The notes beneath the pieces are model-generated. The model was given only the letters and a program-made list of their open reading frames with translations, searched no databases and was not told where the DNA came from. Positions 5,205 through 8,355 of a DNA stretch of 64,000 nucleotides are shown here, one piece after another. Source of the DNA: a virus; the IMG/VR virus record IMGVR_UViG_3300009408_000002, positions 12,916-76,915 of that record; one strand, given 5' to 3'. Position numbers and translations under genes: made by a program. Within the stretch, counting starts at the first letter, position 1. Each line of letters opens with the position of its first letter.

Positions 5205-5413
5205 ACAATGGCAATGGAAACGGAGCAGAAGGCACAAGATCGAGATCGAGGCGATCGGCAGAACTATTGCAGGAGGCAACCGATCGGATCGATGAGTTCA
5301 TCAGCAATGACCGATTGAGAGGATGTGCAACCGGGGTTATGAAGAATCCCGACAAGAAGACGATTGAAGCGATCATTGCCGCGAAGGAGGCGGCAGAAAA
5401 CCTGACGACATGA
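5201..5413 (+). CDS. Hypothetical protein
   Basis: Overlaps both neighbours (GTGA/ATGA). Confidence 0.6.
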   Translation: MNNGNGNGAEGTRSRSRRSAELLQEATDRIDEFISNDRLRGCATGVMKNPDKKTIEAIIAAKEAAENLTT

Positions 5414-8355
5414 TTGTATTTCAGGAGCAGTTTCTCAAGTTCCCGCTGAAAGATCCGACAGATTTCGTTCTCCAGTCGCATGTGCGAGGAAAATCCAACC
5501 ACATGGATTTTAGATTTGCTATTGACGGCAAAACTCTCGCTGGCTACACTCTCGTTGGAGTTGATGGGCTGAGTCGTGAGCCAGCAAACCTGGCTGAGGC
5601 GAAGAAGCTCATCAAGCCGGGTATCGAAATAGCTCTGAACCGTCTATCGGATCATTCAGGAAAAACCCGCGCAGAGCCGAAATCGACCCAGCCTACGATA
5701 TGGCTCAGGATCGGAGATCGGGAGTTCGCTCCCGGAGAGATCGGGGCCACGAAGAACAAGAAGGGCTGGATCATAACGCTGGAAAAAGCGAAGCTGAAGT
5801 TCGGCGCACAACTGAATGACTTCCACGAATACTGGGTCCAGGGCAGCAAGATCAAGGGAAGATTCCTCTTCCGACAGCTTGCCCAGAAAACAATGCGACC
5901 GTCTGGCGAAGATGCGCCGCCAGGAGAAGTCTTCTTCTGGAATGCATGGTTCGCAAAGTCACAGGTCCCGTTCGTCCTGTCCAAGCGTGCAGTTGATGAG
6001 CCCTACATCTCGCCGCGAGGAAGTTCTGCGCTCCCGGATGAGATCGAGAAACTCGTCCCCGAGAGATTCCGATATTGGAAGTTCAGCTCTGAGTCCAAGC
6101 GGCGTGCCGTGCGAGATGAACTGCGTGAGGCAATCAAGAGCAACGATGTGCCAATTGAGATATCGTTTTCTCAAGACGATCCACTCGAAGAGTTCGAGGC
6201 CACAAAACCGGGTCCTGGGCGGTTCTCTCTGCAGCGAAGAATCTTTCGCGGCCCTATCCAAGTTCGCGTTGGCCCAACCCGCCAGATCTTCGATCTCCGA
6301 ATCGCACTGGACAACGAAACACAGGCGCGTCATTTCGTCCTTGATCAAGATCCGCGCAAGAACTTCAAGTTGTCAGCGACACTTGAGGCCGCCACTGGCA
6401 AGGACAAGCTTGAGATCGGTCGAGGCGGGACCAAGAGAGTCGAACCGGGTACACGTCTCAATCCCAGCAAGAACACCCCCGCGTTTGTCGAGTTGCTCGA
6501 CTCGGGGCCTGTCCGCCTGGCCAATGATTCGGGCATGGTCAAGATCTTTCGCTTTTCAGGGAAAACGCTCAATGCCCAGTTGGTATTCACTAGGCAGGGC
6601 AAGACGAACGTATTCGGAGTTGCGCGAAGCAACGCCAGCAAGAAAGGTGACTCGATGACAGACCCCAGCATGAGGGGGCACGGACCATATCCGTACAAGT
6701 CTCCGTACCCCTATCCTGCCGTCGCGAAGAAGGCCGCAGGGTCCAGTCCATACCCATACCCAACAACGGGAGATGGAAGCAGCAAGGTGATCAAGGTGAT
6801 CGCTCGCCTGCTAGGACTCTCGGCTGTATCGGACGCTGACAAGGACAGGCTCAAGGCAATCCGCGACCGTGCGGGAAAGGGACAGCTTTCACCACGAGAC
6901 ATCGCGTTCGTCTCGGCGCTCCGCAAGAAGATGGGCATCAGCCTGTCGGATGGGACACCCTTCTCCTTCACTGCCGAGTTTCCTCACTATCCATATGACA
7001 CCAGCGAGTTTGCTGAGCGCTGTCCCGACCTGCAATGGCCGGTGTCGCTATGTGAGTTTGGCGAGGAGTGCCCCGCTGAAGGATCTGACAGGAAGGCTGC
7101 CTGCGAATGCAAGTTCGCGCAGGAATACGGCTGCCCGATCTTCCTGCAGGACATCACTCCTTGTTCCGCAGAGGAATTCGAGAACGTCTCCAAGATGAAG
7201 GATGATCTTGGCATCGTTGATATGAAGGGGATCGAAATTGCAAGGACAGGTGAGTGGAATGGCATCCGATTCACCGAAAAGGATCTCGAAGAGATCGCAA
7301 GCAATTTCAATGCTCTGAAGGGCGAACTGGATGTTCCGCTCAAGCTGGGCCATCATGAAGAGCAGACGCTCCTGCACAATTCTGGCGAGCTGGCTGCAGG
7401 ATGGGCCGATCGGCTCTATCGCCAGGGAAAGCGGCTGTTTGTCGATGCAAGTTCAGTCCCGAAACAAGTCTCGGAACTGATCAAACGCCGTGCGTTCCGA
7501 AAGATCTCGATGGAGATGTTCAAGGACTTCGTGGATGCTTCTGGCAAGCGCGTAGGCAAGACACTGAAGGCGATCTCGCTGTTGGGATCAAGCACGCCCG
7601 CGATTCGCGGGATGAAAAATCTCGACGACGTACTAGCCCTATACCAGTCGGAACTGGGCGAAGGCGTTGTCCTCATCTGCTGTTCGGAGGATTCGATGGA
7701 CGACAACGAAGAGAAGAAGAAGACCGCCGAGGGCGATCCGAATCCGTCGCAGGATGAGGAAATCGTCAAGCTGCGTGCGGAACTGGAGTCCCGCAAGGGA
7801 GAGCTTGAGGCCCTGAAGTCTCAGCAGGGCGTGCTCACCATGGCGCTCCAGGAGACCAGGATTCAGCGTGCCAAGGACGCAAACGAGTCGGCATACAAGA
7901 AGCTGCTCAGCGAGGGCAAGGTGCTCCCGCGACAGGAGGCTCGATTCAAGCTTCTGCTGGGTGCGATCGATGCGGTTGCGGATTCCGTGAATCCAGAGGG
8001 CATGTTCTTCTCGGAACTGACCTACGACAAGGAAGCGCAGAAATTCGCACTGAAGACTGGCGTGGGCGAGGACGGAAAGGATCAGTTCAGCCATGAGACG
8101 CTGAAGGATCTGTTCGTCAACTTTGTTGCGGACCTGGAGGATCAGGTCGATCTCAATGACAAGACGCACGACATGGATCCAGACGGCAATCGCAAGATCG
8201 AGAGCATCTCGACTGGCAGTGCTGGCGATCAACTGGAGAAGCTCGCGCAGGAGTTGATCACCAAGGACGACAAGCTGGACTACGGAGAGGCACTAGCCCG
8301 CGCTTCGCGGCAGATGGTGGAGAGCGGCATCGACATCAAGCTGCTCAATTCGTAA
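5410..8355 (+). CDS. LigD-type phosphoesterase domains (x2) fused to Mu gpI-like prohead protease and scaffold
   Basis: N-term 'FVLQSHVRGKSNHMDFRF' (QxH..HxDxR); second copy 'FSLQRR...FDLRI'; protease 'IEIARTGEW...PLKLGH...AAGW...RKISME...LLGSSTPAIRGM'; coiled-coil C-terminus; directly upstream of capsid genes. Confidence 0.85.
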   Translation: MIVFQEQFLKFPLKDPTDFVLQSHVRGKSNHMDFRFAIDGKTLAGYTLVGVDGLSREPANLAEAKKLIKPGIEIALNRLSDHSGKTRAEPKSTQPTIWLRIGDREFAPGEIGATKNKKGWIITLEKAKLKFGAQLNDFHEYWVQGSKIKGRFLFRQLAQKTMRPSGEDAPPGEVFFWNAWFAKSQVPFVLSKRAVDEPYISPRGSSALPDEIEKLVPERFRYWKFSSESKRRAVRDELREAIKSNDVPIEISFSQDDPLEEFEATKPGPGRFSLQRRIFRGPIQVRVGPTRQIFDLRIALDNETQARHFVLDQDPRKNFKLSATLEAATGKDKLEIGRGGTKRVEPGTRLNPSKNTPAFVELLDSGPVRLANDSGMVKIFRFSGKTLNAQLVFTRQGKTNVFGVARSNASKKGDSMTDPSMRGHGPYPYKSPYPYPAVAKKAAGSSPYPYPTTGDGSSKVIKVIARLLGLSAVSDADKDRLKAIRDRAGKGQLSPRDIAFVSALRKKMGISLSDGTPFSFTAEFPHYPYDTSEFAERCPDLQWPVSLCEFGEECPAEGSDRKAACECKFAQEYGCPIFLQDITPCSAEEFENVSKMKDDLGIVDMKGIEIARTGEWNGIRFTEKDLEEIASNFNALKGELDVPLKLGHHEEQTLLHNSGELAAGWADRLYRQGKRLFVDASSVPKQVSELIKRRAFRKISMEMFKDFVDASGKRVGKTLKAISLLGSSTPAIRGMKNLDDVLALYQSELGEGVVLICCSEDSMDDNEEKKKTAEGDPNPSQDEEIVKLRAELESRKGELEALKSQQGVLTMALQETRIQRAKDANESAYKKLLSEGKVLPRQEARFKLLLGAIDAVADSVNPEGMFFSELTYDKEAQKFALKTGVGEDGKDQFSHETLKDLFVNFVADLEDQVDLNDKTHDMDPDGNRKIESISTGSAGDQLEKLAQELITKDDKLDYGEALARASRQMVESGIDIKLLNS

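Follow-up and report, generated by a model that had tools for sequence, protein, structure and literature searches.

Why should a gene lying shortly before the capsid gene of a tailed virus begin with two copies of a domain that cleans DNA ends? The question is raised by an open reading frame (ORF) of 981 residues at positions 5410-8355 of a stretch of 64,000 nt, called here the window, which covers positions 12,916 to 76,915 of the 76.9-kb IMG/VR record IMGVR_UViG_3300009408_000002 (CheckV completeness about 58%). All coordinates refer to the window and, unless indicated otherwise, to its + strand. The source is an uncultured tailed virus of vent and mat sediments. The domain concerned is the phosphoesterase (PE), the DNA-end-cleaning domain of bacterial ligase D (LigD). 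From its N-terminus the open frame encodes PE1, a connector, PE2, a Pro/Tyr-rich linker, a helical and Cys-rich region, a Mu-type prohead protease and a scaffold. As argued below, its product is probably a capsid-loaded 3'-end-healing enzyme that works with a ligase and a nucleotidyltransferase of the same structural module.

Two ligase D phosphoesterase barrels

In the predicted structure and in profile comparisons, the likeness of the N-terminus to LigD PE is well past chance. The AlphaFold2 model obtained with a 42-sequence alignment has a predicted local distance difference test score (pLDDT) of 89.6 and a predicted template modelling score (pTM) of 0.81, the single-sequence run giving a pLDDT of 34. 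Searched against the PDB with Foldseek, the model has LigD-PE structures as its top seven matches, all with prob 1.00. VIA-align, the output of which is the best alignment per chain and covers PE2 (residues 269-409), placed this part of the model on MbaPE 3p43 with Z 16.4 (root mean square deviation (rmsd) 1.8 Å, 119/124 residues), on CkoPE 3p4h with Z 15.3 (rmsd 1.8 Å, 115/118 residues) and on PaePE 3n9d with Z 13.7 (rmsd 2.0 Å, 118/148 residues), as against Z 4.6 for the next unrelated chain (rmsd 5.8 Å, 70/392 residues). A different fold, the outcome that an earlier note on this DNA had named as fatal to its assignment, was thus not what the comparison of PE2 with the PE crystal structures revealed, and on superposition PE2 (residues 266-410, positions 6205-6639) is a canonical PE barrel.

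PE1 (residues 12-184, positions 5443-5961) is predicted to form a LigD-PE-like barrel with model strands E17-181 and a helical insert at residues 61-80. Profiles of PE1 and PE2, built from 145 and 135 domains, align with 97% probability in hhalign (E-value 1e-10, 114 columns), and the two domains therefore represent an internal duplication. The proposal of two LigD-PE-fold domains, made in the earlier note from the letters alone, is in this way upheld by Foldseek, VIA-align and hhalign; the end that it gave to the feature, position 6630, proved about three codons short, as PE2 reaches approximately residue 410 (nt 6639). Between the barrels lies a connector (residues 185-265, positions 5962-6204) modelled with a pLDDT of 90-98, which carries the pattern PFVLSKRAV...SALP...FRYW...R..RD.L with invariant P187, W223, R235 and L238. 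The invariant columns recur in three family alignments and, judged by sequence, the connector is peculiar to the viral family carrying PE1-PE2.

Simple sequence searches were far less informative. No Pfam match was obtained even at E<=10 with the whole window protein or with three N-terminal pieces of it, phmmer found no PDB sequence match, and a six-frame search of the virus record with LigD_N (PF13298) was negative. A HMMER search of 1.84 billion representatives (clusters at 50% identity) yielded 868 relatives of the PE module at E<=1e-3 and 181 at E<=1e-30; a word-index homology search found 2 proteins and no more. Pfam LigD_N matches 10 of 23 relatives, with a best E-value of 4e-6, and the match falls on PE1 in relatives P0005 and P0006 and on PE2 in P0145. 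Alignment to LigD_N, the check proposed earlier, was consequently a partial success: the window protein itself is not matched, but its relatives are, below the cut-off. The family profile also aligns the first strand and the K-A-P-E-P-x-E-W segment to MbaPE 3p43, and the nearest ESM Atlas clusters for residues 1-205 are viral 'LigD 3'-phosphoesterase' (LigD_N) with a score of 0.94, which is a lead rather than a test.

Active-site residues of the two domains

In MbaPE, His36, His42 and Asp44 bind Mn, Arg46 and His78 bind phosphate, and Tyr82 is a further key residue; the Pae equivalents are the Mn ligands H42/H48/D50, the phosphate-binding Arg R52, His H84 and Tyr Y88, and the MbaPE mutant H78A is nearly dead, with 2-6% product (PMC3082917). 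The profile alignment to MbaPE 3p43 places these six residues on H24, H31, D33, R35, Q94 and W98 of PE1, respectively. The first four, together with Q22, lie in the motif LQSHVRGKSNHMDFR, whereas the last two lie in the segment KSTQPTIW (residues 91-98). The register to 3p43, read with the residue roles just cited, agrees with two claims of the earlier note, namely that PE1 retains the His-His-Asp-Arg set and that it has KSTQPTIW where LigD has EDHPxxY.

The conservation of these positions was assessed in 144 PE1 domains, each representing a cluster that shares no more than 50% identity with any other. H24, H31, D33 and R35 are kept in 141-142 of them (R35 in 142), K91 and W98 are invariant (144/144), and E140 and R155 are also near-invariant. 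Position 94 is Glu in 79 domains, Gln in 43 and His in 6. A near-invariant metal site combined with an altered position 94 indicates strong selection on the PE1 metal site and a phosphate pocket that is different. Activity of PE1 is therefore not to be assumed, since the mutant of MbaPE that lacks the corresponding His78 is nearly dead and this His has proved essential in all PEs assayed to date.

PE2 presents another picture. Its LQRR (residues 274-277) and FDLR (residues 294-297) segments have R277 and I293 in place of the metal histidines and keep D295 and R297, so that the absence of both histidines, already noticed from the letters, is confirmed by a census of 134 PE2 domains. In that census 32 domains keep His-His-Asp and 19 the full Q-x-H...H-x-D-x-R set. 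PE2 has near-invariant polar residues of its own (R286, N351, K354, T356), and it is therefore degenerate in the window virus yet not decaying. The His-His-Asp site of PE2 is intact in relatives P0026, P0066, P0068 and P0009 and in 28 more, whose sequences suggest that some of these viruses may carry two active PE domains in tandem. Arrays of the PE1-PE1-PE2-PE2 or PE1-PE2-PE2 type occur at several loci.

It could be imagined that both PE domains are catalytically dead and serve the procapsid as DNA-binding or space-filling cargo, given that PE1 is without the essential His and that the metal site of PE2 is lost. We regard this as quite unlikely. The four active-site residues, K91, W98, E140 and R155 have remained near-invariant across 144 divergent representatives, which is hard to explain without chemistry at the PE1 site.

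Fusion to the prohead protease and the surrounding cassette

The PE module is continued in the same frame by a Pro/Tyr-rich linker (residues 411-462, positions 6640-6795), the fusion junction, which contains three PYPYP repeats conserved in relative P0003. A helical segment and a Cys-rich segment follow (positions 6796-7194), conserved in P0003 and at the beginning of the stand-alone protease gene of locus L004, then the core of a Mu gpI-like prohead (head maturation) protease (positions 7195-7695) and a C-terminal coiled-coil region (residues 763-981, positions 7696-8352). Residues 600-738 match the head-maturation-protease PHROGs phrog_976 (E 2.7e-28) and phrog_3894 (E 1.9e-19), and H648, S700 and E702 of the protease are invariant in an alignment of four homologues. 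Pfam Mu-like_Pro (PF10123) scores 13.6 bits versus a cut-off of 25.2, and the Pfam Mu-like protease and XkdF-type profiles found no match in the virus record, which is about 58% complete. The C-terminal region is scaffold-like by the extent of the phrog_976 match in P0003, which reaches model position 312, and by its position upstream of decoration-like and capsid genes. The capsid gene begins 450 nt downstream of the 981-residue ORF. By profile match and by its place before the capsid gene, the predicted protein belongs with the Mu gpI-type prohead protease/scaffolds, and the PHROG matches and the protease alignment bear out the earlier claim that the PE domains stand in frame and N-terminal to a prohead protease.

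A candidate internal start, M763, lies at the protease/scaffold boundary: GGAGGA, 4 nt and an in-frame ATG (positions 7686-7698). No other GGAGG-N3-9-ATG match occurs before position 12.8 kb; the window as a whole contains 33 such matches, at least seven of them at the starts of long ORFs. The position of M763 suggests a nested scaffold-only product by analogy with Mu I/Z or lambda Nu3. A YPYP motif like that of the linker is also present where the stand-alone protease gene of L004 begins. The Cys-rich segment proper (residues 538-588, positions 7021-7173) has 8 Cys, about five of which are conserved in P0003 and L004, and may be a metal-binding knuckle.

The possibility that assembly or sequencing joined two separate genes by error deserved attention, as PE module and protease are encoded by two genes in loci L004, L032, L034 and L050 and as the contigs of one independent run break at 6731-6735, within the repeat-rich linker. 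We consider such an artefact extremely improbable. P0003 (1003 residues) has the same continuous architecture, from the PE domains through PYPYP linker and Cys-rich segment to protease and scaffold, with 45% identity over 999 columns along its full length. In a different study, of microbial mat, two runs yielded contigs that are 100% identical to the window and free of indels over 5300-6730, 6628-7046 and 6736-8500; one of these runs leaves 6731-6735 in the linker uncovered, the other covers that place, and in the likely source run one contig passes through the whole stretch. The junction is hence reproduced by independent contigs and by a relative of 45% identity, so that the fusion is not the assembly artefact that the earlier note had named as refuting it. 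A hydrothermal-vent metagenome of 2017 and two microbial-mat metagenome runs from another study, of 2020, all match positions 5300-8500 at 100% identity: this virus, or one nearly clonal with it, recurs in different samples. No RNA dataset was listed among those that contain the stretch.

The ORF is part of a conserved gene order. The large terminase and portal genes lie upstream of the window and run into it, followed by a gene for an 897-residue protein (positions 2131-4824) with two small nucleotidyltransferase domains and an ATP-dependent DNA ligase (PF01068, E 1e-16, residues 582-776), two small ORFs, the 981-residue ORF, a 127-residue head protein, the major capsid protein (positions 8804-9730; phrog_1005, E 4e-35) and tail genes that include the tape measure. 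In a domain census of 152 representative relatives, an ATP-dependent ligase is found in the same polypeptide in 112 and a small nucleotidyltransferase in 98, and 50 have an XkdF-type protease (PF14550, E down to 3e-33) at the C-terminal end. The Mu-type protease is restricted to the window protein and P0003 among these representatives. Some relatives reach 2,300 residues and carry methyltransferase and glycosylase domains as well. A census of 77 IMG/VR loci revealed the order [NTase-ligase][PE1-PE2][Mu-type protease][capsid], NTase standing for nucleotidyltransferase, as separate adjacent genes at L004, L032, L034 and L050, which belong to closer relatives, and an XkdF-protease gene directly after the PE gene at L064, L072 and L076. 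These fused and split gene orders identify the window as one fusion state of a conserved cassette, the parts of which, as far as the gene arrangements tell, freely fuse and split yet remain beside the prohead protease.

The virus encodes a second ATP-dependent DNA ligase, of 626 residues, at 44545-46425 on the - strand (PF01068, E 8e-28). Since the replication module has its own ligase, that of the structural module is not the replicative one and represents an extra copy. The gene at 44545-46425 adjoins genes for a SNF2 helicase and a RecA/KaiC-like ATPase in the replication module. Farther along the window, after the tail genes, positions 36752-40454 hold glycosyltransferase genes and a glycosyltransferase-methyltransferase fusion. 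A tblastn search of 50,697 phage records produced ANMV-1 as its sole match. At this locus (L001; KP703175, a putative virus of ANME archaea) the similarity extends over 3200-5800 with 29% identity (E 4e-40); it corresponds to the C-terminal half of a gene annotated 'ATP-dependent DNA ligase', in which the PE domains are unannotated.

The company that the PE module keeps bears on its substrate. The earlier note had raised cyclic-nucleotide signals, and PE1 might act against host defence by degrading nucleotide second messengers or RNA ends that carry a 2',3'-cyclic phosphate. The altered phosphate pocket, with Gln/Glu for His and a new invariant Lys, would fit such a function, and packaged effectors that counter host defence are known (PMC5512222). 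We nevertheless hold this to be highly improbable: the coupling to the ATP-dependent DNA ligase (112/152) and to the nucleotidyltransferase (98/152) in the same polypeptide is tight, and no link to known signal-degrading families was seen. Cyclic-nucleotide signals as a substrate thus gain no support, the usual partner of the module being a DNA ligase.

Proposed role and known systems

Fold, residue pattern, fusion and conserved gene order are established, and from them we infer catalysis, packaging, cleavage, timing and delivery as follows. The N-terminal 410 residues, a tandem duplication of the LigD 3'-phosphoesterase barrel, would form one packed unit. PE1 would be its catalytic half, with a Mn site formed by H24/H31/D33, a phosphate-binding R35 and a metal-dependent 3'-end-healing activity; its phosphate pocket appears remodelled, with K91 and Q94 (E/Q in the family) standing in for His and W98 for Tyr. 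PE2 would be the non-catalytic partner in the window virus, contributing nucleic-acid binding or structural support. Because the module is fused in frame to the protease/scaffold through the PYPYP-rich linker, it would co-assemble into the procapsid, to be cut free afterwards by the protease. The candidate internal start M763 may supply the bulk of the scaffold, in which case the full-length enzyme form would be a minor species. With the upstream ligase-nucleotidyltransferase protein, the module would make up a capsid-tied end-repair set of the LigD kind, without Ku. Inside the particle or upon entry, this set might clean and seal breaks or ends of the viral genome. The repeated linkage to two distinct prohead protease families lends support to encapsidation.

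Scaffold and protease fragments are established to exit the capsid in HK97, lambda and Mu. The activity of the module might therefore be confined to head assembly in the producer cell, where it could, for instance, heal or seal nicks or terminase-cut ends during packaging; the module would then be expelled or degraded with the scaffold. Such a role would suit the location of the gene in the late head operon, the scaffold fusion that puts the module at the site of DNA entry and the normal exit of scaffold and protease fragments. It leaves unexplained, however, the giant multi-enzyme relatives with methyltransferase and glycosylase domains, which resemble injected polyvalent proteins (PMC5512222), and for this reason we judge it unlikely, though less so than the other alternatives.

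Several observations weigh against a capsid-loaded end-healing enzyme and temper our preference for it. Prohead proteases and scaffolds usually leave the capsid, and the PE module might do so too. The phosphate-binding and catalytic His (PaeLigD His84 / MbaPE His78) is absent from the PE1 sequence. The window protein reaches no Pfam threshold; even its relatives, at 25.6 bits or less, fall short of the LigD_N gathering cut-off of 31.1 bits, and a PE1-only profile run against PDB sequences retrieved 3p43 at a non-significant E-value of 0.55. The assignment of PE1 to LigD-PE accordingly depends on its homology to PE2, the Pfam matches of relatives, the profile alignment to MbaPE, the model strands and the ESM Atlas lead. 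No Ku profile match was found in the virus record, itself only about 58% complete.

The capsid-loaded end-healing enzyme could be one case of something broader. We tentatively suggest, as a possible but doubtful generalization, that many uncultured tailed viruses of Bacteria and Archaea carry an in-capsid, single-use, Ku-independent end-joining kit composed of a nucleotidyltransferase, a possibly pre-adenylated ligase and a tandem PE with a new Lys/Glu-type site. This kit would be loaded by fusion to the prohead protease, or from a gene beside it, and would be ejected along with the genome, so that ends or nuclease cuts could be healed and sealed ahead of viral expression. If so, it would represent a new class of virion-borne counter-defence or genome-maintenance system.

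Some viral clusters already bear the label LigD_N in automatic databases. In the open-access literature on LigD or phosphoesterase in connexion with virion, phage or prohead protease, we found no description of the PE1-PE2 module. What is specific to the instance in the window is that the module is fused to a Mu-type protease/scaffold and separate from the ligase, and that the pocket of PE1 is without His. Should PE1 be active, the PE barrel would work without a histidine thought to be essential, which would make it a new catalytic variant of the PE fold and define a large viral branch of the family, with 868 clusters at 50% identity (E<=1e-3) and 77 IMG/VR loci. Should the module be packaged, viruses would carry their own DNA break repair into the cell, with a bearing on survival of restriction or CRISPR cuts or of damage suffered in hot sediments, and on the reason for which a second ligase is retained among the head genes of some archaeal viruses (PMC5434244). 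The protease/scaffold fusion would also be a natural means of loading cargo into capsids that could be copied for enzymes in phage-derived shells.

How does this module compare with systems already known? The PE structures considered were PaePE 3N9B/3N9D/2LJ6, MbaPE 3P43, CkoPE 3P4H and Methanocella PE 5DMP (PMC3082917). With LigD PE and the archaeal PEs the viral module shares the eight-stranded barrel (PE2, Z 12.9-16.4), and with LigD PE the His-x5/6-His-x-Asp-x-Arg strand and the G-x-[VY]-G-A loop of PE1, as well as the association with an ATP-dependent ligase and a nucleotide-adding enzyme. It differs in being a tandem duplication joined by the conserved 80-residue connector, in the Glu/Gln that replaces His in PE1, with an invariant Lys three residues upstream and Trp for Tyr, and in one more residue between the two histidines of PE1. 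Moreover, the viral companion is a small Pol-beta-type nucleotidyltransferase instead of the primase-type POL of LigD, no Ku was found, and the gene resides in the head module, fused to the capsid protease.

Two ligases are also described for magroviruses (Philosof et al. 2017, PMC5434244): besides that of the replication module, another lies 'unexpectedly' among the head genes. The window virus likewise has a ligase in each of these places, whereas neither a PE domain nor a link to the protease is reported for magroviruses (PMC5434244). Polyvalent proteins (Iyer et al. 2017, PMC5512222) are multi-enzyme polypeptides encoded among virion genes, for which packaging and processing by an attached peptidase are predicted, and the viral PE family is similar to them: by the domain census and the gene order, it has several unrelated enzymatic domains per polypeptide among portal, terminase and head genes. 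Neither LigD nor DNA ligase is mentioned in the paper on polyvalent proteins (PMC5512222). In contrast to the MuF or portal anchor of polyvalent proteins, that of the window protein is a prohead protease/scaffold.

In this respect the closest parallels are the protease and scaffold pairs gpI/gpZ of Mu and C/Nu3 of lambda, which are encoded by nested genes. As in those phages, protease and scaffold of the window virus follow each other in one frame directly before the capsid gene, with M763 as the candidate internal start; unlike them, the window protein has an N-terminal enzyme-bearing extension of about 595 residues, and its Mu-like_Pro score is only 13.6 bits. The internal proteins IPI-III and Alt of phage T4 reach the head by means of a capsid targeting sequence and are cleaved by the prohead protease. 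By analogy with them (for Alt, see PMC5512222), the PE module is proposed to be carried in the procapsid core until the maturation protease sets it free, and to be ejected together with the DNA. It would differ from the T4 proteins in its targeting, by covalent fusion to the protease/scaffold, and in its nature as cargo, that of a nucleic-acid repair enzyme.

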